From: an uncultured Thermoplasmata archaeon
Lineage (GTDB): Archaea > Thermoplasmatota > Thermoplasmata > JAGHBH01
Assembly (NCBI GenBank): GCA_964601625.1
Contig: CAZROC010000001.1
Span: 46,348-110,347, forward strand
Length of the DNA stretch: 64,000 nucleotides
Reading direction: 5' to 3'
The notes beneath the pieces are model-generated. The model ran no database searches and was not told where the DNA came from. It saw only the letters and a list, made by a program, of their open reading frames with translations. The position numbers and the translations under genes are program-made. Positions 8,149 to 29,744 of the stretch are shown here, one piece after another. Numbering within the stretch: the first letter of the stretch is position 1; every line of letters starts with the position of its first letter.

Positions 8149-8163
8149 CAGTAACACGAAATC

Positions 8164-10054: not shown

Positions 10055-10092
10055 GAAGGACATTAACGGGGGAGAGGAGGAACGTGGGAATC

Positions 10093-11283
10093 TCATTTTT
10101 CTCCCAGAACCCGGAAATATAACTCCTCCATTTTTAGAGAGTTCTTCTTCCAGTCTGCGTTTTCTCTCACCCATTCCAGGTTGTTTTTTATGGCGTTCTC
10201 TCTGAACTCTTCGTCTTCAACCGAGCGTATTATGTACTCCGAAATGGAGTGAATGTCCTGGGGGTCCACGAGGAAACCTGTTTTTCCGTGTTTTACCATC
10301 TCCCGGTTCCCGGGTATATCCGTGGCTATCACAACACAGCCGCAGGCCATTGCCTCGTACATTGAGAGGGGGCCCTGGTCTTTTTCAGGTATCATGACCG
10401 CCACGTCTGCCATGTTGTAATACACCGCCATCTGCTTGTGTGGAATAAAGTCACTCACAAAACGCGTTTTCTCCCTGACCCCCAGTTTACTGGCCAGCTT
10501 TTTCAGTTTCTTTTCGTACTTCTCTTCACCGCCAGCTCTCAACAGCACAAGGTACAGGTCCTGCCGGCCCGTGGTATCTATGGCATGAGCAAAACCAGCC
10601 AGTATCTTATCAATGTTGTAGAAGGGCGACATATTTCTGGGGCTGAGAACGACACGTGCGTCCTCGGGGATGTCCAGCGTTTCCCTGAGGGCCTCTGCCT
10701 CCGCTTTTCTTTCAGTGTTAAAAATAGAGAGGTCAACTCCCCACGGGAAGGCGTGTATTTTCTCCTCGGGGATGTTGAACCGCTTGGATATTAGCTTCTT
10801 TGCGTGGTTTACCAGGACGGTTATGGCCGCCGCCTCTTCAAACGCTTTTTTTCTCAGCTCATATCGTCTTTTCCCGAGTTTTTTCGTGAAAAAGTGCATG
10901 TAGTTTGTCACATGAGTAAGGCTCATCAGACCCCAGTTTGTCAGGATATATGGTCTGAAACCGGAGAGATAGGCGTATTCCCCGTATTTTGCCAGGTCGT
11001 GGGCGTGGAGTATGTCCGGTTTTATTTCTCCCAGAATCTTCTTTATTTCACGCACACGCACACGTCTGTTGACGGGTTCAATGAAGTTCTCGGCGTATCT
11101 GAGGTGGAAGAGGTGGTGAAAAGACACATCCGGGCGCAGCTTATTTTCTCCGGGAAAAGTGTAGGACAGGACGTGTACTTCCCATCCTATGTCGTTGAAG
11201 TAGTTGGCCCACCGCTGGACATGTACAGAGTTGGCGGGTCCGAGCAAAGCCACCTTCAGCCCTTCTTCTGCTGCATCCTTCAA
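10093..11283 (-). CDS. Glycosyltransferase family 4 (same subfamily as 23635..24789)
   Basis: MYEAMACGCVVIATDIPGNREMVKHGKTGFLV; the N-terminus ...NSVHVQRW... parallels ...SPHLQRW... of the GT at 23635. Confidence 0.8.
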   Translation of the reverse strand: MKDAAEEGLKVALLGPANSVHVQRWANYFNDIGWEVHVLSYTFPGENKLRPDVSFHHLFHLRYAENFIEPVNRRVRVREIKKILGEIKPDILHAHDLAKYGEYAYLSGFRPYILTNWGLMSLTHVTNYMHFFTKKLGKRRYELRKKAFEEAAAITVLVNHAKKLISKRFNIPEEKIHAFPWGVDLSIFNTERKAEAEALRETLDIPEDARVVLSPRNMSPFYNIDKILAGFAHAIDTTGRQDLYLVLLRAGGEEKYEKKLKKLASKLGVREKTRFVSDFIPHKQMAVYYNMADVAVMIPEKDQGPLSMYEAMACGCVVIATDIPGNREMVKHGKTGFLVDPQDIHSISEYIIRSVEDEEFRENAIKNNLEWVRENADWKKNSLKMEELYFRVLGEK

Positions 11284-12653: not shown

Positions 12654-12668
12654 TCTTTATCCTCCTGT

Positions 12669-13442
12669 TTAGCTCCAGTCCGCCCGTCTCCAGTCATAAT
12701 TCTCTTTCACTACCTTCGCCGGGTTTCCCGCTATGAAAAGATTTCCTTTCTCAAAGCTCTTTGTGACGACAGAGCCCATTCCCACGAGTGTGACCGGGCC
12801 TATTCGCACCCCCATGTTAAATTTGCAACCGGCGCCTATCCACACGTGATCTCCTATGAAAATGGGAGCAGGTTTTCTGTCTGCTCCATGGGTCCAGAAA
12901 GAAGAATCTACACCACCTATTACACAGGCCCGTCCGATATATATGTCCCGTGATGTGTCAAAATAGTGTCTGTCTGTCACTTCGCACAGTTCTCCCAGAT
13001 TCTCATCGTATCTGCCGCGTATGCTGTTGAAATTTCCCATCCTCACATTCTTTCCTATGACTATCTCCCCACCGCCTTTTATTATGTTAAAACTCCCTAT
13101 CTTAACACCTCCTCTCAGAAGACCACTCCGGCCCCCCTTTTCTTTTGATGGGTCTATCCCGTGTTCGCCCACTTTGAAGAGTTTTACGTCTGTGACCAGG
13201 TTAAAGCACCCGATTGAGACAAAGTCCCCTATGTCCACGACGTCTGCGTCCAGCACACAGAGCCACCCTATCCTGCTTTTTTTTCCTATCTTCACACCCC
13301 TGCATATTCTGTAGGCGATTTTTCTCAGAGTGTTAAACGGGAGCAAAGATGCGAGCAATCTAGTCAGCCGGGGCTGCATGTTCTCTGCAAAACCATGGGG
13401 TGGACTTAATATTTTCTGAGCGGACAAGGGATGACAAAACAA
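12669..13442 (-). CDS. Hexapeptide-repeat (left-handed beta-helix) acetyltransferase, WcaF-like
   Basis: Hexapeptide repeats (IGDFVSIG, IGKNVRMG, IGDHVWIGAG, MGVRIGPVTLVG). An alternative start at the internal ATG (13379) is possible. Confidence 0.75.
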   Translation of the reverse strand: MFCHPLSAQKILSPPHGFAENMQPRLTRLLASLLPFNTLRKIAYRICRGVKIGKKSRIGWLCVLDADVVDIGDFVSIGCFNLVTDVKLFKVGEHGIDPSKEKGGRSGLLRGGVKIGSFNIIKGGGEIVIGKNVRMGNFNSIRGRYDENLGELCEVTDRHYFDTSRDIYIGRACVIGGVDSSFWTHGADRKPAPIFIGDHVWIGAGCKFNMGVRIGPVTLVGMGSVVTKSFEKGNLFIAGNPAKVVKENYDWRRADWS

Positions 13443-13524
13443 CCGACAGGATTATATAACCCATATTTCACACGTTTAGGATGTTTAAGTGTGTCTGGAA
13501 ACTTAAACCGGCGGAGGACGAGAA

Positions 13525-14748
13525 GTGAGAGTCTGTATGGTCTACCCCAAAGACCTCAGAACGCTGAGATACGATGGGCGTGTTTTAAAAGAGGCACAGA
13601 CACTTATTAAAGCAGGACATGATGTGATAATAGCTTGCGACGACCGGTCTTTTGATGTAGAAACCATATATGTGGACGGGGTCGGGATTAAATGCGCCGG
13701 GACCCGGGGGCGTAAATCGTTTGAGTGGCTGGCGGACCTGGTGGCACAGCACGTTGTCCACCTTTTTTCAAGGGCATTTCTTGACAGAGGTCTGAGTGTG
13801 AGACCGATGTACATCGGACTGTTGCTGGGCTTGAAAGCCGACGTTTATCATGCCCACGATCTCTCTGCGCTTCCCTCTGCTCTTTTTTGTGCCAGAATGA
13901 CGGAATCTCTTTGTGTCTATGACTCGCATGAATTCTTCCCCGGAGAAAAAAATTATAAATTACGAAGATTTTTTATACGATTTTTTGAAGGTTCTATGAT
14001 ACGGAGATGTGACGCTGTCATCACCGTAAACGATTCCATTGCGGGCCTGTTGAAAAAGATATACAGCCTGGAAAAGGAAGTGGTTGTTTTGCGCAACTTC
14101 CGCAAACAGACGCCGCTGGCCCGGAGCAACCTGTTGCGTGAAAATCTGGGCATACCCCCATCTGCCAGGATACTGATATATCACGGCAACCTGTCGCCGG
14201 ATAGGGGGGTCGAAAAACTCGTGGACGTGGCGAAACAGATGCCCGAGGTACACGTGGTCATGGTGGGGAATGGTGTTCTACGGGATTCCCTCATGAAAAG
14301 AGCCCGCTCTGAGGACGTAAAAAACATATCCTTCCGTGACAGAATAAAACAGGAAGACCTCATGAGGTATCTCTCCTCAGCAGACGTGGGTCTGCATCCC
14401 ATAGAGAACACCTGTCCCAACAACTATTACAGCCTGGGAAACAAGATAGGCGATTACATCATGGCTGGAATCCCCATCGCCGCTAGCGACTTCCCGGAGA
14501 TGAGAAAAATAATACTAGGAGAAGACATAGGCGTTGTGTTTGACCCCGACGATATAGAGAGCATTGTCAAAGCCCTCCGCTCCCTTCTGAGCAGCGACGC
14601 ATACGAAAAAAAGAGAAGAAACGTCCTATCCGTCAGAGAGAAATACTCGTGGGAAAACGAGGAGAAGAAACTGGTTAGACTTTACCGGGCTTTGGGCAAA
14701 AAACGGCTCTCTGCCAGAAGGCGATGTGAAAAAGAGGTGAGCGCTTGA
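13525..14748 (+). CDS. Glycosyltransferase family 4 (tandem paralog 1)
   Basis: EVHVVMVGNG...YYSLGNKIGDYIMAGIPIAASDFPEM is the GT4 C-terminal domain. Its stop overlaps the next GT start as ATGA (14745-14748). Confidence 0.8.
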   Translation: MRVCMVYPKDLRTLRYDGRVLKEAQTLIKAGHDVIIACDDRSFDVETIYVDGVGIKCAGTRGRKSFEWLADLVAQHVVHLFSRAFLDRGLSVRPMYIGLLLGLKADVYHAHDLSALPSALFCARMTESLCVYDSHEFFPGEKNYKLRRFFIRFFEGSMIRRCDAVITVNDSIAGLLKKIYSLEKEVVVLRNFRKQTPLARSNLLRENLGIPPSARILIYHGNLSPDRGVEKLVDVAKQMPEVHVVMVGNGVLRDSLMKRARSEDVKNISFRDRIKQEDLMRYLSSADVGLHPIENTCPNNYYSLGNKIGDYIMAGIPIAASDFPEMRKIILGEDIGVVFDPDDIESIVKALRSLLSSDAYEKKRRNVLSVREKYSWENEEKKLVRLYRALGKKRLSARRRCEKEVSA

Positions 14749-15956
14749 AAATATGCATGCTGCTCATGAACAAATACGAACTCCTGCTGACGGACTCGCG
14801 GGTGCTGAAAGAGGCAAAGAGTTTAACAGAGGCAGGGCATGAAGTTGTCATAGCATTATACGACGAGAGATACACAGAAGGATACGTTGACGCTTTTGGC
14901 GCGCCCATCAGGTGCGTGGGACTCGGAAAAGAGACCGGTGGAGGCAGGGGTGGTAAAAAACACGGGCACTGGACATATTCCCTCATAAAACTCCTCCCGG
15001 ACAGGGTCGCCGACTTCTTTTTCGGGATGGTTGAGAGGGCTCTTTTGTTCAGGATAAACAAGCGGTTTCTGGAAGTGGCGATATCAGAGGAACCAGATGT
15101 GTATCACGTCCACGATTATGTAGCGCTGCTCTCCGGGTGGATAGCAGCGAAGACCATTGGTGTGCCAGCCATATACGACTCCCACGAGTGCTATGTGTAC
15201 GTCCAGATGTCTCCCAAAAAAAGGCGTCTGGTCACATTGATGGAAGGAGTCATGGCCAGGCAATACGCCCGCATTATTACTGTAAACGAAACCTGTGCAA
15301 ATACGATAAAACGCGTTCACGGAGTCAAAAAGCCCGTCATCATCTCAAACTACGCCATGTATATACCTCAGACAAAAACCGATGTTCTGAGGAAAAAATA
15401 CGGTATACCGGAAGACAAAAAAATCGTCCTCTATGTTGGTGCACTCCAGGAGGGGCGGGGACTGTACACCGTGCTTGATGCTGCTCCCAGAATTGAAGAG
15501 TGCGTCTTCGTTCTCATGGGACCCGGGCCCCTCAGAAAAGAACTCGCCGGGGCTGTGAAAAAAAGAGGGCTTAAAAACGTTATAATCGCAGACCCCGTCC
15601 CTCCCACACAGTTGCTGGAGCACATCGCATCGGCTGATGTGGGCCTCTGTCTGATAGAGAACATTTCAAAGAGCTATTATTACAGTCTCCCGAACAAAAT
15701 AGGGGAATACATAATGGGTGGGATACCCATCGTAGTAAGCGATTTTCCGGAGATGAAAAAACCCGTCGTAAAATACAACATAGGAATAACCTGCGACCCG
15801 GAAGACCCCGAAGAGCTGGTCAGTGTGTTGAAAGAGTTGCTCAGACCGGAGGTTTACAGCGAAAAAATAAAACATATGGCTGATGCACAGAGAGAGTTCA
15901 ACTGGGAGAACGAGGCAAAAAAGCTCGTAGACCTCTACAACTCCCTCTCAAGTTAG
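14745..15956 (+). CDS. Glycosyltransferase family 4 (tandem paralog 2)
   Basis: YYYSLPNKIGEYIMGGIPIVVSDFPEM closely parallels the upstream GT. Confidence 0.8.
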   Translation: MKICMLLMNKYELLLTDSRVLKEAKSLTEAGHEVVIALYDERYTEGYVDAFGAPIRCVGLGKETGGGRGGKKHGHWTYSLIKLLPDRVADFFFGMVERALLFRINKRFLEVAISEEPDVYHVHDYVALLSGWIAAKTIGVPAIYDSHECYVYVQMSPKKRRLVTLMEGVMARQYARIITVNETCANTIKRVHGVKKPVIISNYAMYIPQTKTDVLRKKYGIPEDKKIVLYVGALQEGRGLYTVLDAAPRIEECVFVLMGPGPLRKELAGAVKKRGLKNVIIADPVPPTQLLEHIASADVGLCLIENISKSYYYSLPNKIGEYIMGGIPIVVSDFPEMKKPVVKYNIGITCDPEDPEELVSVLKELLRPEVYSEKIKHMADAQREFNWENEAKKLVDLYNSLSS

Positions 15957-17194
15957 AACGGCGGGGGAACGTTGCTTATAACATACCTGCTTTTTCCCGT
16001 TGGTGTCTTTGGTATGTCGTCCACGTACTCAAAGCTTATGCTGACATCTCTGTCAAACTTCCAGATGGTGTTTTTTATAAACACTTCATGTTCCTCACCC
16101 CACCCCTCTTTCTTTTGCACCTTTACCAGGATGTCAGTTTTGCTCTTTTGAATTATCTGGAAGGCGATCATGGGCAGATGAGCGGAGAGAAAGTGGTTGG
16201 CCAGCTCAGTTCCGTTAAAGACGGCGTTGTTTGTGACTATGTAGTCCGTGGTCCGGCCTTTCACCGGGCCAAGGAGGGGCAGTGTCCTGCCACAGGAACA
16301 TGGCTCTTCTTTCATGACGGCGACATCGTTGAGCCGGTATCTGATAAAGGGCATGGCATAGTTGAAAAGGTCCGTGGACACAACGACCCCCTCTTCTCCG
16401 GGTGACACGTTTTCTCCGTCTCTTATAAGCTCCAGGATGCTTCTGTCAACCGATATGTGAAAGCCCTCGTGTCTGTCGCACTCATATGTGTTCACCCCCC
16501 CGTCGTTCACACCGTAGTGGTCAAAACATTCTCCGAGAACCTCGTCTATAACCCTCCTGTACTCGGGGAGAAGCACCTCCGAAGTGGAAAAAACCGCCTT
16601 TTTTCTCATATCAATGCCACGCTTCTTTACGTGCAAAGCGAAATGATAGAGAGCAGAGGGCACCCCCCTGTATATTTGTATGTTTGATTTGTTTATTTTT
16701 TCTATGTACTCATCAAGTATTTCCTCGTTCCATCCTATGCACTCAAGAGTGAGATCGCTCCGGCCCAGGCCGCCTCCCGTAAAAGTCACTATCCGGTCTC
16801 CCTTTTTGTATCCCGCCCAGCGCCACCCCCTCAGCTGACAGCGCCCCGTTGCGTACATACTGTTTTTGGTGAGATAATACCTGAAACTGCGGCCCGTGGA
16901 ACCGCCGGTGTTGTGGACGTGCAACCCGAACTTTTCCTTGTTTCTGGCCAGGAAATCGGGGTTGTCCCTCATCATCTCCTTGTCCACAATGGGCAACTTT
17001 TGCAGGTCCGCCGCCGTTTTTATGTCGTCCGGTGTCAGACCCCGCTTTTTCATCTCCCTGTGCCAGAAAGGGACGTTCCTGTAGGCGTGTTTTATGAGGG
17101 CCCTCAGGAGTTTGTTCTGCAACGCCTCCAGATCCTCTTTTTTGGCCCACTGGTTTTTCTCAAAGTTTATGAGACGGGGGTTCGTTGTCAACAT
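15953..17194 (-). CDS. Coenzyme F390 synthetase-like / PaaK-like adenylate-forming enzyme (second copy)
   Basis: HVHNTGGSTGRSFRYYLT motif; collinear similarity to 11280..12653 (for example ...IRYRLNDVAVMKEEPCSCGRTLPLL vs ...IRYRVGDVSAIREELCSCGRGLSLL). Confidence 0.65.
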   Translation of the reverse strand: MLTTNPRLINFEKNQWAKKEDLEALQNKLLRALIKHAYRNVPFWHREMKKRGLTPDDIKTAADLQKLPIVDKEMMRDNPDFLARNKEKFGLHVHNTGGSTGRSFRYYLTKNSMYATGRCQLRGWRWAGYKKGDRIVTFTGGGLGRSDLTLECIGWNEEILDEYIEKINKSNIQIYRGVPSALYHFALHVKKRGIDMRKKAVFSTSEVLLPEYRRVIDEVLGECFDHYGVNDGGVNTYECDRHEGFHISVDRSILELIRDGENVSPGEEGVVVSTDLFNYAMPFIRYRLNDVAVMKEEPCSCGRTLPLLGPVKGRTTDYIVTNNAVFNGTELANHFLSAHLPMIAFQIIQKSKTDILVKVQKKEGWGEEHEVFIKNTIWKFDRDVSISFEYVDDIPKTPTGKSRYVISNVPPPF

Positions 17195-17365
17195 ATTAAA
17201 ACAAAGAGGGTATTAGGCGTATATATAAATTACTCGGGGGGGTTTCATTTATCTGCACAGTATGAGCCATACAGGCTCTCCAAAAAAATACTTATATGCT
17301 CGGCCGATGAAGGAATACAGGAAAAAATCCTGCGAACTGATAAAATACCTATAAAAGGTGAGACT

Positions 17366-18232
17366 GTGAATATAAAAGATGAGATTTACAAAAGGCTCCC
17401 GGACATAAACAGGGTGCGAACATACCACATGGACAAATATCGTAAATTCCTCGCGAATCTCTTGTCTAATAAAAACGTAGAAATCATACCCCTCAGAGAA
17501 TTCTCCAAACGCCCAACCGAAGATAAGATACTCCTAGGCATAAGACACGACGTTGATCACAGTTTAGAATCCGCTCTAAGGATGGCAAAGATAGAAGCGA
17601 AATTGGGCATACAAACGACATATTTTATACTCCACACTGCCCCCTACTATTTCAAGGTACAGGATGGAAAAATCGTGCGCAACGAATCCGTGATAGACAT
17701 TTTACGCACAATCCAGGACGAATACGGCCATGAAATAGGCTTTCACAATGACCTTCTAACCCTCCAGATAGTTTATAGAATAAGCCCAAGAGAGTATTTG
17801 AGAAAGGAACTATCTTATCTGAGAAAAAACGGCATTAAGATTGTAGGCACCGCCGCGCACGGTTCAAAGTATCACGACCATTATAAATACATCAATTACT
17901 ACTTTTTTAAGGAATGCGAAAAACCGCATCCAAACTTTCCGAATACAGATTATGTCCGCATCGGCGATAAAAAGGTCATATTTGAAAAGGGGACATTAAA
18001 AGAATTTGATCTTGAATACGAGGCGTATTTCTTACCATACGATTATTACTTTTCAGATTGCCAGACCGTTAGAGGAGGTAAACTATGGCACCCTGAGATG
18101 CTGGATATAAAAAAGATCCCCCTGAATTCCAGGATTCAAATATTAATCCACCCGTGCCGCTGGTACAGTTATCATGAACTGATTACTTCCATTAAAAAAC
18201 GCATATTGCATAAAATAAACGCCGAAAGATGA
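17366..18232 (+). CDS. Polysaccharide deacetylase-like protein (paralog of 3305..4111). The start is uncertain: GTG 17366 with a GGTGA Shine-Dalgarno, or ATG 17429
   Basis: LLGIRHDVDHSLESALRMAKIEAKLGIQTTYF; the long upstream ORF extension (from 16913) overlaps the convergent F390-like gene and is not credited. Confidence 0.5.
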   Translation: MNIKDEIYKRLPDINRVRTYHMDKYRKFLANLLSNKNVEIIPLREFSKRPTEDKILLGIRHDVDHSLESALRMAKIEAKLGIQTTYFILHTAPYYFKVQDGKIVRNESVIDILRTIQDEYGHEIGFHNDLLTLQIVYRISPREYLRKELSYLRKNGIKIVGTAAHGSKYHDHYKYINYYFFKECEKPHPNFPNTDYVRIGDKKVIFEKGTLKEFDLEYEAYFLPYDYYFSDCQTVRGGKLWHPEMLDIKKIPLNSRIQILIHPCRWYSYHELITSIKKRILHKINAER

Positions 18233-18572
18233 TGAACATGTCTTGTAGAAGGCCGTATTAAACCCTATGAGTGCGTCGTCATAGTGACCCCCACCCCGAG
18301 TTCAAAGAGATAACAGCAGAGTTGCTGAGAGAAAACGGCATAAAAGCTGTTGTTGACGGCCACAACATACTCAAAAAAGACGACATCTTGGCCACCGGGA
18401 TTGTATATGAGGGGATAGGGAGGTAAACGCAGTCAAAACCGAAAGGGAAATCCATGCCAAGTTCATCCCTCTCCCCTCTCAACAACCGACAGGAGGACCC
18501 TCTTTACCTCCTTCTTTCTTCGGCTCCCATCGCTTGAAGATCTCTATGATATATCACTCAACGGTAATACTT

Positions 18573-19760
18573 CTAGTTAACGAGGGCATCCAACACTTTT
18601 GAAAACTGCTCTGCCATGGACATCGCTGTAGGTGGCTTTGTCGGTATACATTTTTGATATATTTGGCCTGTTATAATACGCTCCAATGCACATTTTATGG
18701 CCGAAACATCATCATAAGGCACAATAGTACAGTTCCCGTTCTTCTCTAACAGGTCTTTGGCTGCTCCTTTAGGCGGTATCATAGCTAAAATATGTCTGTG
18801 CAGTGCAAGATACTCAAATATCTTCCCAGTGAGAATATCTTCTTCTCCCCTTCCGCGCCCAATAAATAGGAGAAGAACGTTTGATTCTGCTGCTTTCTTC
18901 AAAGCTTCCGGTCGTGGTATCTCATCCATAAACTTTACAATGTTCTCAAGATCATATTCCTGAGCCTTTACTCGTGCGCTATTGTTGCGACCGATGAAAT
19001 TCACCTCAATTTTATTTCGGATGGTGGGATCCAAGCGTGCAAGTGCCTCAAGGAAATAATCTGCCTTTCTCCGACCATATAAACTTCCTATATAGGTAAA
19101 GATAACCTTGTCTTGGAAACGAGGCGGGGGGAGATTGAAAAAATCATCGGGATCAAAACCAGTATAGATGCTTTTTGCCTTGTCTTTTTTCATTGGGTAT
19201 TTGGATATTAGCTGATTTATGAGCTGTGGATTTATGCCCGTGATAAAATCTGCTGTTTCCACAACACTTCTTTCCATCCAGTTCTCTATTTTCGCACGGA
19301 TGCCATGGATTTCGACAAAAGGATTTTGTGTCCAAAGATCTCTAAAATCTGCCACCCATGGAAGGCCGGTGTATTTTTTAATCCAGTACGCGGCAAGGTG
19401 GGACGAGGAGGGGAGGGAGGAACTAAGAATCGCGTTAATTTTGTGTTTTTTGGCATATGAAACCCCCGCCTTTATAGCAAACGGAACCCATCCAACTGCT
19501 TGATCGGGAATGCTGAAAAATTTCCAGAACGCTCTGCTGTCGTATTCCAGAGAATGTGTTCTAATGATTTCAATCCCTGAGGGAATATCTTTCATAGATT
19601 CATAATCATATATGGGCCGAAAGATAGATCTTTTGACTGTGAGGACCGTTGGTTCCCAGCCATATTGGGGCAAATATTTTACAAGTTTTGAAACCCGGCC
19701 CACCCCACAATGTAGAGGCGGAAACAGGTAACTTACAACAAGGACCCTTTTCATCGACAC
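18573..19760 (-). CDS. Glycosyltransferase (GT4-like GT-B fold)
   Basis: An N-terminal GT-B domain (VLVVSYLFPP...GVGRV) and a C-terminal domain with a conserved E...E region; less canonical than the other GT4s. Confidence 0.6.
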   Translation of the reverse strand: MSMKRVLVVSYLFPPLHCGVGRVSKLVKYLPQYGWEPTVLTVKRSIFRPIYDYESMKDIPSGIEIIRTHSLEYDSRAFWKFFSIPDQAVGWVPFAIKAGVSYAKKHKINAILSSSLPSSSHLAAYWIKKYTGLPWVADFRDLWTQNPFVEIHGIRAKIENWMERSVVETADFITGINPQLINQLISKYPMKKDKAKSIYTGFDPDDFFNLPPPRFQDKVIFTYIGSLYGRRKADYFLEALARLDPTIRNKIEVNFIGRNNSARVKAQEYDLENIVKFMDEIPRPEALKKAAESNVLLLFIGRGRGEEDILTGKIFEYLALHRHILAMIPPKGAAKDLLEKNGNCTIVPYDDVSAIKCALERIITGQIYQKCIPTKPPTAMSMAEQFSKVLDALVN

Positions 19761-19812
19761 GTTAACGAAAGAAGGGTAGATAAACTTTTATATCTAGGAA
19801 AGATGCACACTG

Positions 19813-20751
19813 ATGATGACCCCGGGCATTTACAAGAAGTATTTTATAGACGATTTCTTCAATACGATGTTCAAAAAATCCAAAGCATATACTTATAAAC
19901 TAGATGAAAAAGGCGTGATCACAATAAACTACATTGAAAGAAAATTGGGAGAACAATACAACCCGGTGGCCATTGCTACTTATGCACTAGGAGAATACAA
20001 CAAGTATTATGATACCAGATCGGCTACTGCCAAAAACTTGTTTCTTTCACACGCTGATTGGTTGGTGGAGAATGCTATCCCAAAAAAAGATTTTGTGGTA
20101 TGGCACTACAATTTTGATTGGATATCTCCAGGCTATCGTTGCAAAGCTCCGTGGATATCCGCTATGGCGCAAGGATTAGCAATGAGCGTTCTAATCCGCG
20201 CGTGGACGATCACGGGGGATGAAAAATATCTTTCAACAGCCAAATTAGCATTTAATTCATTCAAAGCCACAGTGGAGGACGGCGGTGTCGCAAGGAAGGA
20301 TAAGAAGGGATATCTCTGGTATGATGAATACGTTTGCGAAAAATCAGCAAACGTATTGAACGGTATGATGTTCGCTGTGATCAGCCTCCACGAATATTGG
20401 GAGGTAACAAAGGATCCTGAGGCAAAGGAGCTTTTTGATGAAGGGGTACGAACCTTGGAGGCGAATCTGAAGCGGTTTCGGCTGGAGCTCGGGTTCTTCA
20501 GATATTCACGATATGATGATTACCTGCTCATATATTCTGGAGAAAAATATCATAAATGTCACCTTCAACAACTGAGATATCTAATTCAGGTCACGGATAA
20601 TAAAACGTTCAAGAAATACCTCGCACTCTGGGAAAAAGCCGACAGGATAAAAGGAAAGAGGCTCTTCCTATTCATGAAGTTATATAGGATATATCTCCGG
20701 ATCATCCAAAGAAAGGTGAAAAAAGAATGGGAGCGCAGAAAAAATGAATAA
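19813..20751 (+). CDS. D-glucuronyl C5-epimerase C-terminal-domain homolog (polysaccharide-level uronic acid C5-epimerase family)
   Basis: [18 protein letters not shown] matches the W-S-A-M-A-Q-G motif of heparosan glucuronyl C5-epimerases. [16 protein letters not shown] and HLQQLRYL... also parallel the Glce C-terminal (alpha/alpha)-barrel. Compared from memory, not by search. Confidence 0.55.
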
Positions 20752-21241
20752 AAAAATAAAGGAACTGATCGCCGTTGTCCTGGAAAAAGTGCCATTAAAA
20801 ATCGGATACGACCTTAGAGAAAAATTCTATAAACGAGTTGCAAAGAGAATCGGGAACAATCTGTGGATGAACAGGAATGTCAGGATTGAATGTCCCGAAT
20901 ACCTAGAATGCGGGGACAATGTTGTCATCAATATGTGGACATGGATAAATGCGAGAGGCGGGGTGAAAATAGGCAATGATGTTCTCATCGGTCCCAGAGT
21001 GATAATACACTCTGCCAATCATCGGTTTAAAAACCGAGACAAACCAATCAGGCTCCAGGGCCACGATTTCAAAAAGGTCACAATTGGAAATGATGTATGG
21101 ATTGGAGCAGGTGCGATAATCCTTCCGGGGGTTACAATCGGGGATGGGGCCATTGTGGGGGCAGGTGCAGTTGTTACAAAAGATGTGGAGCCCTATGCAA
21201 TAGTAGCCGGTGTTCCGGCGAAAAAAATAGGTGAGAGATAA
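20744..21241 (+). CDS. Hexapeptide-repeat sugar O-acetyltransferase (maltose/galactoside acetyltransferase-like)
   Basis: [18 protein letters not shown]...[33 protein letters not shown] is the classic LbH acetyltransferase C-terminus. Confidence 0.8.
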
Positions 21242-21445
21242 ATTTTAGACGGGTGAATCATAACCTCTTAATACTGGTCGTTTCTCCTCGGCTATGAAAA
21301 AATACTCTTCCAAAAACAGAGTGTGTTGAGATTAACAGCACCTGCAATCTCCGGTGCCTGTAATATTGGACAAAAAATGTGTATGGAAATTTCTATCAAG
21401 GCCTGCCTGTGCATGTTGTTGTTCACTTTTTATGGAGCGAACTAT

Positions 21446-22993
21446 CTAGATTCGTCTTCTGATTGGATTTAAATGGACAAGGATTTCTTTGACATCGCTT
21501 TTTTCTTTTGGGGACAATCCTAATATGTAAAACAGCCCTGCGAACAGCCCGGTACCGATAATAAGATATGCCACCAACATCATCAACCCGGTGGGGGGGA
21601 GATACATTTGAAGACCATACAGTAGCCCCCCTACGAATAGAGAAAGAACATACGGGACTGCCAGGACTTCCCTAGTGTATCTCCGCACATCTATTTTGAG
21701 AAGTCTCCAGGCATGTCTGTGTATCAACGGCATCACGACGAAGTATGGTATGGTGGTTCCAAGAACTACTCCCAGAAGGCCATAATATCTAACAAGAATT
21801 ATACTTAATAATAAATTGAGTACGGCGTTACCCATGTTTAAATAAAGTATCGGCTTGAACCGCTCTTTTGCTAATAGAGTGTTTCCTATAGTCCCGAAAG
21901 GAGCCAGTATGAACCAATATAAAAGATAGACCCTTGCAACCAATCCTATCCATTCATAACTTTCTCCCATCCAGAAACGAATAATGTGATCTGCGAGAAC
22001 AAAAATTGGAACAAGAGCCATAAATGTGATCGCACACCTATACTTGCTGCCCGTATACAGGATTCTTTCAATCTTTTCTTTCTCCTTTAGAGTGTCCATT
22101 TCAGTGATGGCAGGAAGGAGAGCGCTTCCGGATAGATACCAAACTGATTGCACAACCTGATGCAACTTTCTGGCTACAGAATAGAATGTAATCGCAGACA
22201 TGGAAAGAAACACTCCGAGCACGATCTGGTCAGTGTAAAGAATAATCATGCCAGCTATATTTGTGAAAAAGATAACAACGCTGAAGGTGAATATGTTGCG
22301 CAATGTCTTTGTCGTCATATATTCCCGTTTAAGTGTGATGTAAGGTGCTAACCTGTGGATTACGAAGATGTGAATTACCTGTAGGAGTGTGCTTGCTATT
22401 ACCTGAAAGAATATGAGCTCAATAATCCCGTACCCTGACGAAAGAACAACCCATGTAATAGCAGCATTAACAGAACTCCCAAAAACAGTCAGTTTGGCTG
22501 CGATATCGTATCGCTGAAGGCCCGCATATATCGATTGAAATGAACGTATAGGCCAACTGGTCAGACTGGTAACTGCCGTTATATAAAAAATATATCTAGC
22601 TATCCAATAGTCCTCAGTATCTATTTTGAACAGAGACAAACCCGATGTTCCTATAAGTATAAGTGCAGAAAATATAATAAGTCCAACTCCAATGTAAAAA
22701 AGAAAAACTGAATTAATCATTTTATTAATTGTCTCCTTGTCTCCCCTAGCATTATACTGGGCCACATATTTTACTAAGGCTGTTCCAAAGCCAAAATCCA
22801 ACAGTCCAAAATATCCTGTTACACTACCTACTAAGAGCCAAATGCCATACATCTCGGCTCCAACATGATGGACTATGAATGGAAACAGGATGAAGTTGAG
22901 AGCGTATCTCCATAGCCGAGCAAAACTGTTGGCAAGAGTATTTGCCGCAATCTTCGTCTTTGTACTATACATGTTTCCACTCCTGTCACTCAT
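21446..22993 (-). CDS. Polysaccharide/oligosaccharide flippase (MOP superfamily, Wzx-like)
   Basis: ~515 aa, 12-14 predicted TM helices, the N-terminal pattern of polysaccharide-biosynthesis (Wzx) proteins; AT-rich coding sequence. Confidence 0.75.
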   Translation of the reverse strand: MSDRSGNMYSTKTKIAANTLANSFARLWRYALNFILFPFIVHHVGAEMYGIWLLVGSVTGYFGLLDFGFGTALVKYVAQYNARGDKETINKMINSVFLFYIGVGLIIFSALILIGTSGLSLFKIDTEDYWIARYIFYITAVTSLTSWPIRSFQSIYAGLQRYDIAAKLTVFGSSVNAAITWVVLSSGYGIIELIFFQVIASTLLQVIHIFVIHRLAPYITLKREYMTTKTLRNIFTFSVVIFFTNIAGMIILYTDQIVLGVFLSMSAITFYSVARKLHQVVQSVWYLSGSALLPAITEMDTLKEKEKIERILYTGSKYRCAITFMALVPIFVLADHIIRFWMGESYEWIGLVARVYLLYWFILAPFGTIGNTLLAKERFKPILYLNMGNAVLNLLLSIILVRYYGLLGVVLGTTIPYFVVMPLIHRHAWRLLKIDVRRYTREVLAVPYVLSLFVGGLLYGLQMYLPPTGLMMLVAYLIIGTGLFAGLFYILGLSPKEKSDVKEILVHLNPIRRRI

Positions 22994-23634
22994 ATATCCC
23001 TAAAACTTGTGCAGGGCTATGGCGTCTCCATGTTCAAGATGATGATATTGCCTCATAATTTGCCTCATGATTGTTTTTTATCACGCCGGTCATTACTACT
23101 CCTTTATCGATATTAGTAATAGCAACACCGGAGGCGATAATGTGATGGAGCCGAAAAGGGCTAGCAAAAAAGTTATCTTTTTCTTTTAAGAATGCGTGTA
23201 ATCTCTTTCTGTTTCTATTGCCCACTCCACCAAGGGTAAATTTCTCTTTTTTAGGTCTTCCTAACTCCAAAGCAATCAATTCTGGCATAGAGCCACCTTT
23301 CCCAGTTTCCATTTTTATTCGCCTTTATTAACTTTGTGGACATTTTGACCTGGCGCGTAGTCCTAAACCAATCGAAATAGCACACGGGTACCACAACAGA
23401 TATAGACGAGAAATTACTCCAGCCACCGAAGGACATCGTAGAAATACGGCTCACATGTGCCCACACCAAAAAACACGTTAAAGCCCAACAACGAAATATT
23501 ATATTTATATTATTATATTTTATATTAATAATCAACATCGCACCCATCGGCCTTTAAATACTATTGAAGACAGGTTACACAAAATGATACTACCATAAAC
23601 TATATACGCTCTTTGTCTTACATGTACAAGCATT

Positions 23635-24789
23635 ATGGGTGAAAATATTACTCTCGCATTGATAGGTAATCCTTTAAGCCCCCATCTCCAGAGGTGGATC
23701 AGATTTTATTCTGAAAAAGGCGTTCACGTTGTTCTCTTTACACGATATGACCCCACGTATCTGTATGAACAATCAGACCGCATTTTTAAAGGCGTTGAAA
23801 TTGCGCAGGTGAAATTTCACGGTAATAAATTCACTAGGTCTATGAATTTGAAAAAAGACCTAAGAAAAAAGATGGGAGAATACAAACCGGACATTTTGCA
23901 TGCCCATTACGTGGCTCTTTATGGGTGGTGGGGATATTTAACAGGATTTCATCCTTTTGTTATGCAGGTGTGGGGTACTGATGTATTTAAATTTCCTACT
24001 ACGTCTATGAAAAATTACTTTACAGTTAAAAAGATTCTAAAATCTGCTGATACTATTATAGTAACTAATGAATACACTAAAAAATATGTATATAAAAAGT
24101 TCAATTTAAAAAATAGAAATATTGTTATAAACAGGTGGGGTGTTGACCTGACCATTTTCGATTTGCCTTCTCCGGAAAAAAAACGACAGCTTAGAAATAA
24201 ATGGGGCATACCTTCAGATAACATTGTGTTCTGTAGCCCAAGGCATTTAACTAAGTTATATCAAGTAGACCTGTTGACAGAGGGGTTTCACCAGTTCACT
24301 AAAGAAAATCCGGACTTAAAAGTATACTTCTTGATATTAACCGGTCTTTCCAGAGACAATGAGATATACAACAAAGTCGTTGAAAAAATCAAAATAAGTA
24401 AAAACATCTCTTTAATAGAAAAAGAGCTAAACGCATATGAAATGGCAGAGATTTTCCAGATCTCAGATGCTGTTTTTTCTATACCAATCCATGACCAGTT
24501 CTCTTCTTCAATCCAGGAAGCCATGGCCTGTGGAAGCATCCCTATTGTCTCAAAACTCCCAGTATACGGAGAGTTTCTTGAAGACGAAAAGAACGCTCTA
24601 TTTTTAAAAGAAGTTAATGCTCAAGAAATCAAAAAAAGTATAAAACGCTTCCTTAATATTGATGAAAACAAGAAAGCAGAAATGATCAAATACAATCGTA
24701 ATATAATAGAAAAATATTTTAATTGGGAAAAAGAAAGTGAAAAAATGCTGGACCTGTACAAAAAGTGCTTGGAAAATACCCTCTATTGA
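23635..24789 (+). CDS. Glycosyltransferase family 4; a low-GC (~33%) gene
   Basis: QEAMACGSIPIVSKLPVYGEFLEDEKNALFLK is the GT4 C-terminal motif; composition differs sharply from the neighbours. Confidence 0.8.
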   Translation: MGENITLALIGNPLSPHLQRWIRFYSEKGVHVVLFTRYDPTYLYEQSDRIFKGVEIAQVKFHGNKFTRSMNLKKDLRKKMGEYKPDILHAHYVALYGWWGYLTGFHPFVMQVWGTDVFKFPTTSMKNYFTVKKILKSADTIIVTNEYTKKYVYKKFNLKNRNIVINRWGVDLTIFDLPSPEKKRQLRNKWGIPSDNIVFCSPRHLTKLYQVDLLTEGFHQFTKENPDLKVYFLILTGLSRDNEIYNKVVEKIKISKNISLIEKELNAYEMAEIFQISDAVFSIPIHDQFSSSIQEAMACGSIPIVSKLPVYGEFLEDEKNALFLKEVNAQEIKKSIKRFLNIDENKKAEMIKYNRNIIEKYFNWEKESEKMLDLYKKCLENTLY

Positions 24790-24792
24790 TAA

Positions 24793-25260
24793 GTGGATAC
24801 AATTAAATACACTCAAAAATATGAGGAGATGATGACAGCCCGTTTCAAAACGTGGAAAAAACCTGAGTTTGACGAGAGGAGTCTCACCAAGTGGAACTGG
24901 ATGTGCCAGCACCCGGAGAATCTCGTTCTCGGTTATGGGTGCGATATCGGCGCCTTCACATACATAAATGCCGCTTTCGGAGTTGAAATAGGGGAGAACG
25001 CACAAATAGGATCCCATTGTTCAATTTATTCAATTTCAACAATAGACGGAAAAAAGGGCAAAGTCGTTATAGAAAAAAATGCGCGAATCGGGAGTCACAG
25101 TGTAGTCATGCCCGGCGTTCGTGTAGGTGAAAATTCAGTCGTGGGAGCGTTCAGCTTCGTTAACAGAGACATACCTCCAAACGTTCTGGCGTTCGGTGTC
25201 CCCGCGCGAGTTATACGCCCTCTCACGGAGGAAGAAATGAGAGGTGCAGAGGATGAGTGA
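24793..25260 (+). CDS. Hexapeptide-repeat N-acetyltransferase (PglD/WbpD-like amino-sugar acetyltransferase candidate)
   Basis: LbH repeats (IGENAQIGSHCSI, IGSHSVVMPGVRVGENSVVGAFSFV); sits directly upstream of the DegT aminotransferase and 4,6-dehydratase. Confidence 0.75.
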   Translation: MDTIKYTQKYEEMMTARFKTWKKPEFDERSLTKWNWMCQHPENLVLGYGCDIGAFTYINAAFGVEIGENAQIGSHCSIYSISTIDGKKGKVVIEKNARIGSHSVVMPGVRVGENSVVGAFSFVNRDIPPNVLAFGVPARVIRPLTEEEMRGAEDE

Positions 25261-26428
25261 ATGGAAAATACCTCTCTTTCGCATATACTGGGATGAAGAA
25301 GATGTCAACGCTGTCAAAGAAGCTATTGAGCGTGGCATGTTCTGGGCCGTCGGTCCAGAAGTGAAAAAATTTGAAGAGAAAATCGCGGAGTTTCTTGGAA
25401 GGCGATATGCTCTTGTTTTTAATTCGGGCACTTCTGCCCTGCATGCACTGCTGTTAGCTCACGGGGTGGGACAGGGGGATGAAGTCGTTGTACCTTCTTT
25501 CTCGTTTATATCTACTGCCAACTCTGTTCTTTTTGTAGGAGCAAAGCCGGTCTTCGCCGATATAGAAGAAGAAACCTTTGGTCTGGATGTTGAAAATGTG
25601 CAGGAAAAGATAACGTCGCACACAAAAGTCATAATGCCCATGCACTATGGTGGAGGGGTGGCCAGAGATATAACTGCTCTGCGTGAGATAGCGGAAGACC
25701 ACAACATCATTTTGATAGAAGATACCGCGGAGTCCTTTGGGGCAAAAAAAGATGATGTTTTTGCGGGGTGTTTCGGTCAATCCGCCGCTCTTAGCTTCTG
25801 CCAAACAAAAATTTTCACCACAGGAGAAGGCGGCGCAATAGTAACAGACAACCGCGATATATATGAACGAGCAAAGCTCGTTAGATCACACGGAAGAGCC
25901 GAAACGGCGGATTATTTTAATTCTACAGAATACATGGATTATGTATCTCTTGGGTATAACTTCCGCATGGCTAACATTCTGGCAGCACTGGGTATATCCC
26001 AGCTCAAGAAGGTTGAAAAGCTCATTTCAATGAGAAGGTCCGTGGCTTCTCAAATAACAGAGTCTCTGTCGGATGTTGAAGGAATAAGAACACCCGTGGA
26101 ACCTGCTGGACATTTTCATGTATATCAGATGTACACAGTACGTGTTTCAGGAGGAAAAAAAACTAGAGATGCTTTAAAGAAACATCTTGAAAAGCGTGGA
26201 ATAATGAGCAGGGTTTATTTTAACCCGATCCACAGAACATCTTTTTACGTCGGTATGGGATACGGGGGTATCTCCTTGCCTGTTACAGAAAAGATTTCTA
26301 AAGAGGTTCTGACACTTCCCATATTTCCTGATATGACATCTGAAGAGATAGAATATATAACCGGTTCAATAAAAACGTTCTTTGAAAAAGAGGAAAAGGA
26401 GCGGAGGGCTAATGAGAGCCAATGCTGA
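25244..26428 (+). CDS. DegT/DnrJ/EryC1/StrS-family PLP-dependent sugar aminotransferase
   Basis: Typical family layout (...NSGTSALHALL...EVVVPSFSFISTANSV...) with the conserved Lys region (...SFCQTKIFTTGEGGAIV). Confidence 0.85.
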   Translation: MQRMSEWKIPLFRIYWDEEDVNAVKEAIERGMFWAVGPEVKKFEEKIAEFLGRRYALVFNSGTSALHALLLAHGVGQGDEVVVPSFSFISTANSVLFVGAKPVFADIEEETFGLDVENVQEKITSHTKVIMPMHYGGGVARDITALREIAEDHNIILIEDTAESFGAKKDDVFAGCFGQSAALSFCQTKIFTTGEGGAIVTDNRDIYERAKLVRSHGRAETADYFNSTEYMDYVSLGYNFRMANILAALGISQLKKVEKLISMRRSVASQITESLSDVEGIRTPVEPAGHFHVYQMYTVRVSGGKKTRDALKKHLEKRGIMSRVYFNPIHRTSFYVGMGYGGISLPVTEKISKEVLTLPIFPDMTSEEIEYITGSIKTFFEKEEKERRANESQC

Positions 26429-27488
26429 AAGACCTTTAGGACTTACTGAGGAAGAGCAGATAAAAAACGCTCTGGAAGATAAAACTGTTCTTGTAACCGG
26501 TGGACTTGGTAGTATAGGAGGAGAAATCGTTCGCCGGTTGGTCGACGAATACTCTACAAAAAAGATCATCATTTTTGATAACAGAGAAACCGAACTTTTT
26601 TATGCTAAACAGGCCTTTTCAGATAAAGTTCATGTCATATATGGGGATGTGAGAGATGCCCGCGCTGTGGAAAGGGCATTTAAAGGAGTGAACATAGTTT
26701 TCCACGCCGCCGCCATGAAACATGTGATAATGTGTGAGATGAACCCTTTTGAGGCTGTAAAAACCAACGTGATAGGCACAGAGAACGTGATCAACGCGGC
26801 GGTTAACAACCGGGTTGAGAAGGTCGTCGTTATATCCACCGATAAAGCGGTGAATCCTACAAATGTTATGGGGGCGACAAAACTTCTGGCAGAGAGGCTG
26901 GTATCTGCGTTTTGTTCGTCGTATAACAAAGACAACGCCCCACGTTTTTCCGTAGTTCGTTTCGGCAACGTCCTGGCATCAAGAGGGTCTGTGCTTGAGA
27001 TCTGGGACAAGCAGTTGAGGGCGGGAGAAAAGATAACAGTAACAGACCCAGACATGACACGGTTTTTTATGGACGTGTCTCAGAGCGTATATCTTATCTT
27101 TTCCGCCATGGTTATGGGAAAACGCGGAGAAACGTTTATTTTCAAGATGCCCTCTATAAAAATAGGGGACCTGGCAAGGGCGTTTTTGGAAGTGCGCGGT
27201 TACCCAGCAGACCATGTTAAAATAACCGGCAAGCGTCCGGGAGAGAAAACCCACGAGGAACTGTTGAACAACGACGAGAAAGAGTTTCTTCTTGAAAACG
27301 AGAAGATGTTCGTTCGGTTGCCTCTTTTTTACGACCAAACGGTTATTGAAAATCTCAAAAGGTATGATTTTAGAGAGGCAACGAACTATTCGTTTTCATC
27401 CGCGGACGAGAATAACCTGTTGGATTTCAAGGATATAATCGCTATACTGGAAAAAAACCTAAAAAATGAGTTAACGATGAATAAATAA
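26412..27488 (+). CDS. UDP-sugar 4,6-dehydratase (short CapD/PglF/PseB-FlaA1 type, SDR family)
   Basis: KTVLVTGGLGSIGGEIVRRL is the Rossmann motif; ...FHAAAMKHVIMCEMNPFEAVKTNVIGTENV...VVVISTDKAVNPTNVMGATK. Start at ATG 26412 after a GGAGGG Shine-Dalgarno; the ORF-track start is a TTG. Confidence 0.8.
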   Translation: MRANAERPLGLTEEEQIKNALEDKTVLVTGGLGSIGGEIVRRLVDEYSTKKIIIFDNRETELFYAKQAFSDKVHVIYGDVRDARAVERAFKGVNIVFHAAAMKHVIMCEMNPFEAVKTNVIGTENVINAAVNNRVEKVVVISTDKAVNPTNVMGATKLLAERLVSAFCSSYNKDNAPRFSVVRFGNVLASRGSVLEIWDKQLRAGEKITVTDPDMTRFFMDVSQSVYLIFSAMVMGKRGETFIFKMPSIKIGDLARAFLEVRGYPADHVKITGKRPGEKTHEELLNNDEKEFLLENEKMFVRLPLFYDQTVIENLKRYDFREATNYSFSSADENNLLDFKDIIAILEKNLKNELTMNK

Positions 27489-27490
27489 TA

Positions 27491-28312
27491 TTATCTCAGA
27501 AAGCTGTTCGCCTCCCGCCATCCCTCCGGAGTGCCTATGTCATATCTTTTGCCTTCTATTTCCACGGCGACGGCGCCTTCTTCTTTTATGAGCATGTCTA
27601 TGGCGTGGGTTAGCTGTATTTCTCCTCGCTGGTCGGGGGGTGTTTTTGAGATGTGGGTGTATATGGCGGGGGTGAGGATGTATCTTCCCAGGACTGCGAG
27701 GTCGCCTGGTTCTTCGCCCGGCTCCGGTTTTTCCACTATTCCACACAGTTCGTATGTTGGCGGGCTGTCGCTGAGCCTTTTTTTTATCTCCACCACGCCG
27801 TAGTTGTGGAGTTTTTCCCGTGGGAGGCGTTCCACCGCCACCACCGTTTTTTTGTGTCGGGCGTAGATTTCCATGAGCTGTTTTATGGCGGGTGTTTTTG
27901 AGAAGACCACGTCGTCGCCCAGGAGGAGGGCGAAGGTTTTGTCTCCCGTGTGGTGTCTGGCAGCGTATACCGCGTGTCCGAGGCCGAGGGGTTCTCTCTG
28001 GCGTATGTAGTGTATGGATGCCATTTCCGCTATGTTCTTTATCTCTGCCAGTTTTTCTTTTTCTCCTCTGGCAGCGAGGATCTGCTCCAGTTCCACTGAG
28101 TGGTCAAAGTGGTCTTCTATCGCCCTCTTTCCCCTTCCTGTTATTATGAGGATGTCGTCTATTCCGCTGGCAACGACCTCTTCCACGACATACTGGATGG
28201 CCGGTTTTGTTCCTATGGGGAGCATCTCTTTGGGCATGGCTTTTGTTGCTGGCAGAAAACGGGTTCCCAGCCCGGCTGCGGGGATGACGGCTTTTGTGAC
28301 TGGTGCTGGCAT
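27491..28312 (-). CDS. Sugar-1-phosphate nucleotidyltransferase, UTP-glucose-1-phosphate uridylyltransferase (GalU)-like
   Basis: KAVIPAAGLGTRFLPATKAMPKEMLPI is the GalU-type signature. Start placed at the internal ATG (28312); the longer ORF would overlap the divergent dehydrogenase gene. Confidence 0.75.
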   Translation of the reverse strand: MPAPVTKAVIPAAGLGTRFLPATKAMPKEMLPIGTKPAIQYVVEEVVASGIDDILIITGRGKRAIEDHFDHSVELEQILAARGEKEKLAEIKNIAEMASIHYIRQREPLGLGHAVYAARHHTGDKTFALLLGDDVVFSKTPAIKQLMEIYARHKKTVVAVERLPREKLHNYGVVEIKKRLSDSPPTYELCGIVEKPEPGEEPGDLAVLGRYILTPAIYTHISKTPPDQRGEIQLTHAIDMLIKEEGAVAVEIEGKRYDIGTPEGWREANSFLR

Positions 28313-29737: not shown

Positions 29738-29744
29738 TATGCCC

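Follow-up and report, generated by a model that had tools for sequence, protein, structure and literature searches.

A short member of the glucuronyl C5-epimerase family in a glycan biosynthesis island of an uncultured Thermoplasmata archaeon, possibly acting on lipid-linked oligosaccharides

Within a stretch of 64,000 nucleotides from an uncultured Thermoplasmata archaeon (contig CAZROC010000001.1, positions 46,348 to 110,347; hereafter the window), an open reading frame (ORF) at 19813..20751 on the plus strand encodes a protein of 312 amino acids (aa) that, judged by its sequence, is a true member of the GLCE-type hexuronyl C5-epimerase family and not an ortholog of animal D-glucuronyl C5-epimerase (GLCE). 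The structural model presents it as a short, minimal, single-domain member consisting of the (alpha/alpha)4 catalytic barrel alone. With regard to function, the balance tips modestly towards C5 epimerisation of a lipid-linked oligosaccharide, most likely the change from glucuronic acid (GlcA) to iduronic acid (IdoA), at the cytoplasmic face of the membrane and before the glycan is flipped; here we infer the epimerase activity, which uronic acid is involved, the lipid-linked stage and the membrane association alike. The features of the gene on which the argument draws are the following.

19813..20751, plus strand: C5-epimerase family ORF, 312 aa from an ATG start, short-form D-glucuronyl C5-epimerase family
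20089..20637, plus strand: PF06662 (C5-epim_C) domain, residues 93-275, located with hmmscan
20152..20175, plus strand: WISAMAQG motif, residues 114-121, read directly from the sequence
20326..20550, plus strand: span of the predicted catalytic residues E172, Y173, N183, Y234 and Y246, from a 122-sequence MAFFT alignment
20656..20745, plus strand: predicted C-terminal cationic amphipathic helix, residues 282-311, from the AlphaFold2 model

The most direct evidence for family membership is the profile match. When searched against Pfam with hmmscan, the protein matched PF06662 with an E-value of 2.8e-46 and 157.8 bits over profile positions 3-188 of 188, compared with a curated cut-off of 23.3 bits, whereas no NCBIfam model matched the ORF and Beta_helix and NosD matches were absent from the Pfam result. 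Pairwise phmmer searches of the Protein Data Bank (PDB) returned human GLCE (6HZZ, 1e-21) and zebrafish GLCE (4PW2, 9e-20) as the sole significant matches, with one other, weak match to a GH76 protein; the PDB sequence alignments reached just GLCE chain residues ~308-522. A homology to heparan-type glucuronyl C5-epimerases had been proposed in a first-pass annotation made from the sequence alone, together with a profile search and a comparison of the predicted structure with human GLCE; both were carried out here, and the homology stands on profile, predicted fold and five catalytic residues. The ORF itself exists as that annotation had placed it, and all the motifs it had named were found (W114-I-S-A-M-A-Q-G121, A-N-V-L-N-G at residues 179-184, and H250-L-Q-Q-L254), with W114 and Q120 invariant across the 33-sequence alignment. 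An hmmsearch of all six-frame ORFs located no second family member in the window.

Structural modelling supports the same assignment. The AlphaFold2 model, built from the 33-sequence alignment, has a mean predicted local distance difference test score (pLDDT) of 92.9 and a predicted template modelling score (pTM) of 0.91. Its predicted (alpha/alpha)4 barrel spans residues ~51-277 and is formed by helices 51-68, 71-86, 117-134, 137-148, 182-199, 202-222, 243-261 and 264-277; outside the barrel, the model shows only short N-terminal strands and the C-terminal helix. When the model was compared with the PDB using Foldseek, the best eight matches were all human or zebrafish GLCE chains (E-values from 5e-12 to 3e-11), which superposed with root-mean-square deviations (rmsd) of 2.3-2.8 Å over 215-222 columns at 27-29% identity. 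The next folds, namely GH76, GH88 and cellobiose 2-epimerase, start at 4e-5 or weaker with rmsd above 5 Å.

Furthermore, the complete set of key GLCE residues is retained. For human GLCE, E499, Y500, N510, Y560 and Y578 have been reported as key residues (PMC13308652), and the mechanism has been described as abstraction of the C5 proton by Y578 followed by re-protonation from the opposite face by E499 (PMC12834895). In a MAFFT alignment of 122 sequences, which combined the query with 119 homologs from the databases and the C-terminal domains of GLCE from human and zebrafish, these five align respectively with E172, Y173, N183, Y234 and Y246, whose columns are conserved in 116/122, 111/122, 111/122, 121/122 and 121/122 sequences. 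The pairwise phmmer alignment had put the Y560 equivalent three residues off, and the assignment to Y234 is that of the family alignment.

The extent of the coding region bears on the location of the protein. A second ATG at 19816 would give a 311-aa product and is the start preferred by public gene calls on identical contigs (JGI 3300022188, ENA ERZ27248007, Logan SRR7051160 and NCBI). A stop codon sits 5 codons 5' of the first ATG, so that the reading frame opens only there, and a longer upstream start that might supply a signal peptide is thereby ruled out. No signal peptide or transmembrane (TM) segment was seen in the ORF with a Kyte-Doolittle hydropathy window. The closest relatives (P0002-P0004 and L005; 39-51% identical and belonging to Thermoplasmata where named) begin at the same position as the window protein, are likewise devoid of TM segments, and form with it a small TM-less clade in a neighbour-joining tree.

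The wider family is more heterogeneous. A database-wide HMMER search over 1.84 billion representatives of 50%-identity clusters retrieved 4,461 relatives with E<=1e-3, of which 2,877 reached E<=1e-10, while the window protein is <52% identical to any sequence in the databases searched here. Of the 120 best homologs, 63 lack TM segments altogether, 30 have one at the N terminus, 21 have them at both termini and 6 at the C terminus only; a positive flank lies on the N side in 47 of 51 N-anchored homologs, which places the catalytic domain of these proteins, by prediction, outside the cell. Domain fusions were examined in seven relatives (P0245, P0286, P0341, P0278, P0263, P0290 and P0283). The C5-epim_C barrel is joined to an S-adenosylmethionine (SAM)-dependent methyltransferase in the nearest 50%-cluster representative (P0245, 45% identity) and to a family 4 glycosyltransferase (GT4) in two others (P0286 and P0341). 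Other relatives are fused to dockerin, PKD, F5/8-C, NosD/beta-helix or polysaccharide deacetylase modules, one combination being polysaccharide deacetylase with F5/8-C. Because fusions and predicted topologies show both settings, the family can be divided into cytoplasmic and extracytoplasmic branches. A TM-less ORF with no upstream extension, and relatives with cytoplasmic fusion partners, together favour a cytoplasmic location, and the window protein is accordingly predicted to belong to the cytoplasmic branch.

Association with the membrane could nevertheless be achieved in another way. The hydrophobic moment of the protein peaks in the predicted C-terminal helix (0.69 at residues 287-304), and the net charge of the final 35 residues is +11; the helix is proposed to serve as a peripheral membrane anchor.

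The gene lies inside a low-GC island rich in glycan biosynthesis genes, the parts of which relevant to the proposed activity are listed below.

4001..28000 (approximate), no strand: low-GC glycan biosynthesis island, GC 39-46% compared with 50-56% in the flanks
18573..19760, minus strand: GT4 glycosyltransferase, divergent from the epimerase gene
19786..19793, no strand: AT-rich TTTTATAT element, single copy in the 52-nt gap, 23-27 nt from both start codons
20744..21241, plus strand: hexapeptide-repeat sugar O-acetyltransferase (WbbJ/WcaF/maltose-acetyltransferase-like)
21446..22993, minus strand: Wzx/MOP-type oligosaccharide flippase, matching Pfam Polysacc_synt, Polysacc_synt_3 and MatE and with a multi-span TM profile
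27491..28312, minus strand: GalU/AglF-like UTP-glucose-1-phosphate uridylyltransferase, TIGR01099 at 337.6 bits against a cut-off of 326.8
28394..29737, plus strand: nucleotide-sugar 6-dehydrogenase, best matched to UDP-glucose 6-dehydrogenases
29718..30845, plus strand: WecB, non-hydrolysing UDP-GlcNAc 2-epimerase, TIGR00236 at 313 bits against a cut-off of 210

The low-GC stretch coincides with the variable glycan genes, whereas GalU, the dehydrogenase and WecB sit at or just past its high-GC edge. Together with its edges, the island encodes about eight GT4 glycosyltransferases, three hexapeptide acyltransferases, a PseB/PglF-like 4,6-dehydratase with a DegT aminotransferase, and a methyltransferase. 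The neighbours reported by the first-pass annotation are real, including the glycosyltransferases (of the GT4 type), the dehydrogenase at 28394-29737, WecB, two adenylate-forming enzymes and two faintly deacetylase-like paralogs. The epimerase and acetyltransferase genes share 8 nt at the stop of the former and the start of the latter, and are therefore probably co-translated. On the other side, the gap to the GT4 gene measures 52 nt (19761-19812), and the TTTTATAT element within it is a possible shared bidirectional archaeal TATA box and promoter from which leaderless mRNAs would arise.

Comparison with related loci suggests that part of this arrangement is maintained. The Wzx flippase is kept beside the epimerase in a Thermoplasmata contig (L004) and in a Theionarchaea locus (L085). 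The former carries the closest homolog, with the epimerase, Wzx and acetyltransferase genes together. The latter (JACVGR010000120.1, 244-20315) is syntenic with the window island, with counterparts of WecB (54% identity), the epimerase (40%), the GT4 next to epimerase and Wzx (40%), the dehydratase (42%) and the DegT aminotransferase (53%), and it also has Wzx, Hexapep and further GT4 genes in common with the island. In addition, it contains a WbpB/WbpE/WbpD-like set (GFO_IDH_MocA, DegT and Hexapep) and an asparagine-synthase-like gene. Lipid-linked assembly is further suggested by the hallmarks found together in the window, namely a PF00953 glycosyl-phosphate transferase (GPT), about eight GT4 enzymes and a MOP-family flippase.

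The genes at the island's edge provide a plausible source of the uronic acid. With NCBIfam models, the dehydrogenase reaches 426 bits for AglM and 361 for TuaD, both of them UDP-glucose dehydrogenases, and 220 for the archaeal UDP-N-acetylmannosamine (UDP-ManNAc) dehydrogenase; against PDB sequences, the Pyrobaculum UDP-glucose dehydrogenase (3VTF) reaches 318 bits and a dehydrogenase forming UDP-N-acetylmannosaminuronic acid (UDP-ManNAcA; 4R16) 189. Because these scores favour the UDP-glucose type, UDP-GlcA is the best-supported uronic acid donor, and the nearby GalU and dehydrogenase genes would constitute its best-supported supply route.

Based on these elements, a mechanism can be proposed. 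Y246, the counterpart of human Y578, would deprotonate a glycan-bound hexuronic acid at C5, leaving an enolate that E172, the counterpart of human E499, would re-protonate from the other face, with Y173, N183 and Y234 assisting catalysis. The enzyme would sit on the cytoplasmic membrane face, as suggested by the lack of an export signal and by the cationic amphipathic C-terminal helix, and its substrate would be a dolichyl- or polyprenyl-phosphate-linked oligosaccharide under assembly by the neighbouring GT4 enzymes. The reaction would most likely convert beta-D-GlcA, supplied through GalU and UDP-glucose dehydrogenase, into alpha-L-IdoA, and the epimerised glycan would then be exported by the adjacent Wzx-type flippase for N-glycosylation or surface-polysaccharide assembly.

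The choice of a lipid-linked substrate depends on where polymerisation takes place. Wzx-dependent pathways polymerise after flipping, and N-glycan precursors are completed on the cytoplasmic face. As polymerisation follows flipping, a cytoplasmic epimerase would meet a lipid-linked oligosaccharide and not a polymer. We know of no UDP-sugars outside the cell; outward-facing members could therefore not use nucleotide sugars, which leaves a glycan as the simplest common substrate class of the family.

Several observations weigh against this proposal. The topology calls were made with a simple Kyte-Doolittle window rather than a trained predictor, and the epimerase homolog of the Theionarchaea locus has N- and C-terminal TM anchors and is predicted to face outwards. 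The stage of action thus varies across the family, and any one assignment has to be made with less confidence. No archaeal PF06662 protein has a measured activity (PMC12624080), and the same applies to short cytoplasmic forms. GLCE needs at least 6 sugars (PMC13308652), and the characterised members, namely animal GLCE and the Bermanella enzyme discussed below, act on long polymers. No AglB-type WWDxG motif occurs in any frame of the 64-kb window. With regard to supply, the dehydrogenase falls below every NCBIfam equivalog cut-off, its 3' end overlaps the WecB start as in WecC-WecB pairs, and the uronic acid may thus be ManNAcA instead. Finally, of 80 related genome loci searched with tblastn, only 3 had a dehydrogenase within 10 kb. 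Its linkage as a conserved family signature is thereby ruled out, and context alone does not connect the family with a supply of uronic acid.

In the alternative that survives best, the chemistry is the same and the uronic acid differs: ManNAcA converted to L-GulNAcA (N-acetylgulosaminuronic acid), a 2,3-diacetamido uronic acid, or galacturonic acid (GalA) converted to L-altruronic acid (L-AltA). Besides the WecC-WecB-like overlap and the sub-cut-off scores, it draws on the WbpB/WbpE/WbpD-like set of the Theionarchaea locus, which is typical of diacetamido-uronic acid synthesis. It is nonetheless considered unlikely, although worth retaining, since, in NCBIfam as in the PDB, the dehydrogenase scores ~2x higher with UDP-glucose dehydrogenases than with those for UDP-ManNAc, and GalU is adjacent.

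Epimerisation could instead take place at the nucleotide-sugar level, with UDP-GlcA converted into UDP-L-IdoA, or another UDP-uronic acid used, before transfer by a glycosyltransferase. The predicted soluble, cytoplasmic nature of the window protein agrees with such a scheme, and the GT4 fusions would also fit substrate channelling. A 323-aa PF06662 homolog, 'Gae', is encoded in the cluster for the L-IdoA-containing O-antigen of E. coli O112ab / S. boydii 15 (PMC3068255), and a UDP-L-IdoA pathway has been proposed for O112ab, without experiment (PMC7685785). However, no GLCE-family enzyme is known to use a UDP-sugar, the outward-facing and extracellular members could not do so, and the model is an (alpha/alpha)4 barrel alone with no nucleotide-binding domain, so that this route appears improbable.

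The first-pass annotation had favoured epimerisation after polymerisation, that is, GlcA to IdoA or mannuronic acid (ManA) to guluronic acid (GulA) in a finished polysaccharide, as carried out by GLCE, the Bermanella enzyme or AlgG/AlgE. Every experimentally characterised GLCE-family enzyme indeed acts on polymers (PMC13308652, PMC4432689), roughly half of the homologs either combine a TM anchor with an outward-facing domain or bear extracellular modules, and the locus encodes many glycosyltransferases together with a polytopic protein (5014-6882) that could be a Wzy polymerase. For the window protein, polymer-level action is probably not the case, and we regard it as a poor candidate: the protein and its clade have neither signal peptide nor TM segment, the 5 codons up to the upstream stop allow no extension, Wzx/Wzy polymerisation would occur after flipping, where a cytoplasmic enzyme has no access, the enzymes found as the closest fusion partners are cytoplasmic, and no synthase- or ABC-transporter-type system for a cytoplasmic polymer was found among the ORFs scanned. 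The ManA/GulA-type (alginate-type) chemistry that had been raised alongside received no specific support.

Least probable is a non-epimerase role, either as a lyase or a hydrolase from the (alpha/alpha)n toroid superfamily or as a glycan-binding protein without catalytic activity: despite a weaker structural likeness to GH76, GH88 and cellobiose 2-epimerases, a faint GH88 Pfam match (E 0.008) and the C5 proton abstraction common to uronate lyases, the structural matches to GLCE are better by 7 orders of magnitude, the catalytic set of GLCE is conserved in full, and a degradative cytoplasmic enzyme in a biosynthetic operon is unlikely.

Placed beside known systems, the epimerase is closest to the catalytic part of animal GLCE. 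It shares the Pfam family, the barrel fold and the five catalytic residues with the human (6HZZ/6I01/6I02) and zebrafish (4PW2/4PXQ) enzymes. Human GLCE, however, is 617 aa long, and the animal enzyme is a three-domain dimer, whereas the model of the 312-aa window protein is without the N-terminal beta-hairpin dimerisation and beta-sandwich domains. Neither the membrane anchor nor the lumenal topology of animal GLCE is present in the window protein. The animal enzyme works with N-deacetylase/N-sulfotransferase and O-sulfotransferases on heparosan, whereas no sulfotransferase domain was detected in ~55 scanned ORFs of the window, in agreement with the first-pass annotation. By comparison, the substrate of the window protein is probably a short, unsulfated, lipid-linked glycan.

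Only one prokaryotic PF06662 enzyme has been characterised, RED65_08024 of Bermanella marisrubri, which belongs to the same family as the window protein and converts GlcA into IdoA in vitro on desulfated heparin or heparan sulfate (PMC13308652, PMC4432689). It is bacterial, 448 aa long (PMC3068255), and was assayed on polymers only. Earlier, prokaryotic genomes had been screened with human GLCE, and PF06662 homologs were listed from Methanocaldococcus (298-308 aa), Methanothermobacter, Methanococcus voltae, Thermococcus and Korarchaeum, with their genes close to sugar-modifying genes and with conserved tyrosines and histidines considered as catalytic candidates (Raedts et al., 2011; PMC3068255). 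Further archaeal homologs were found by the present searches in Thermoplasmata, Theionarchaea, Nitrosocosmicus, Nitrosopolaris and Thermoproteota, and the description of such a gene as unusual for Archaea, given by the first-pass annotation, does not hold. The short homologs of Raedts et al., including 'Gae' and the Methanocaldococcus proteins, resemble the window protein as ~300-aa single-domain forms in glycan clusters; they are putative, and the window protein differs from them in belonging to a small TM-less Thermoplasmata clade.

IdoA has been known in Halobacterium since 1986. The only experimentally identified archaeal GlcA C5-epimerase is Agl32 (VNG1058H) of Halobacterium salinarum, which epimerises GlcA on a lipid-linked tetrasaccharide before translocation (PMC13308652), the same task as that proposed for the window protein, with AglF/AglM-type supply genes likewise nearby. 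Agl32, however, is AGE-superfamily-like, unrelated in sequence and without the GLCE catalytic residues that the window protein possesses. Membership of the window protein in the Agl32/AglQ type, with its AGE-like (alpha/alpha)6 fold, was ruled out by the Foldseek results, in which GLCE reached 5e-12 and cellobiose 2-epimerases 6e-5 or weaker with rmsd of 6-7 Å. As one enzyme is GLCE-like and the other AGE-like, the window protein would represent an independent archaeal solution. That a GLCE-type enzyme acting on a dolichol-linked oligosaccharide, and not on a polymer, provides Thermoplasmatota and related archaea with a second route to N-glycans or surface glycans containing IdoA, independent in evolution of the haloarchaeal Agl32, and in addition an ancestral minimal form of the animal heparan sulfate epimerase, is a tentative idea that we consider doubtful. 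AlgG and AlgE, the alginate mannuronan C5-epimerases, also epimerise hexuronyl residues at C5 and do so at the polymer level; they are right-handed beta-helix enzymes, periplasmic or extracellular. Since the model is all-alpha without a beta-helix, alginate-type membership was ruled out.

The remaining features of the window concern the host, other parts of the glycan machinery and potential glycan carriers.

5-637: Alg7-like GlcNAc-1-P transferase (PF00953 GPT), clipped by the window start
5-1808, minus strand: region in which Alg13-like (PF04101) and Alg14-like (PF08660) genes follow the Alg7-like gene
3305-4111 and 17363-18232, plus strand: paralogous soluble proteins with a common IRHDVDHS motif, neither with a significant family match
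5014-6882, plus strand: polytopic protein of 622 aa, with ~11 hydrophobic spans plus a C-terminal part that is soluble
11280-12653 and 15953-17194, minus strand: two CapK/PaaK/F390-synthetase-like adenylate-forming enzymes (CapK_C domain), among glycosyltransferases
32489-32582, plus strand: tRNA-Pro(TGG) of 94 nt called by ARAGORN, unseen by Rfam at gathering threshold
36223-39174, minus strand: protein of 983 aa with a C-terminal peptidase C25 (gingipain-like) domain
54009-58220, plus strand: Kelch/beta-propeller repeat protein of 1,403 aa

Archaeal marker genes in the window include aRF1, archaeal DnaG, LonB, the PAC2 proteasome chaperone, XPD and PorB, and the best named relatives of aRF1 come from Thermoplasmatota/Thermoplasmata and Methanomassiliicoccales metagenome-assembled genomes at 66-73% identity. 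The Alg7/Alg13/Alg14-like set corresponds to eukaryote-type machinery for a chitobiose N-glycan core and stands beside the glycan island. The 622-aa polytopic protein was considered as AglB or Wzy; it gave no Pfam match even at E<=1 and no PDB sequence match, lacks the WWDxG motif, and could be a novel Wzy-like polymerase or a novel GT-C enzyme. The two CapK/PaaK-like enzymes could amidate uronic acid carboxyls, presumably after C5 epimerisation if, as we assume, the epimerase needs a free carboxylate. Among the IRHDVDHS paralogs, one shows a faint Polysacc_deac_1 match (E 0.048), and the pair may form a divergent deacetylase-like family of the glycan island. The two large proteins of 1,403 and 983 aa are probably surface proteins and potential glycan carriers. 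Rfam at gathering threshold reports only a tRNA-Ser at 44020-44104, and the tRNA-Pro call may reflect either an archaeal tRNA with an intron or a false positive.

Altogether, the window protein adds a well-supported member to a family that is already known and very large, and both its lineage and its context had been anticipated. Genes of this type have been predicted in archaea since 2011, and the present case adds an example and a topological argument rather than a new principle. What is added here is the TM-less Thermoplasmata clade, the division between cytoplasmic and outward-facing members, backed by fusions, and the argument for a lipid-linked substrate. If the proposed activity is correct, the surface glycans of uncultured Thermoplasmatota would contain IdoA or some other uronic acid epimerised at C5, whereas IdoA in archaeal N-glycans is so far known from Halobacterium only, where it is made by an unrelated enzyme. 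Short cytoplasmic GLCE homologs would then offer compact single-domain candidates for the chemoenzymatic synthesis of heparin and other glycosaminoglycans, as well as a model for the origin of the animal enzyme.

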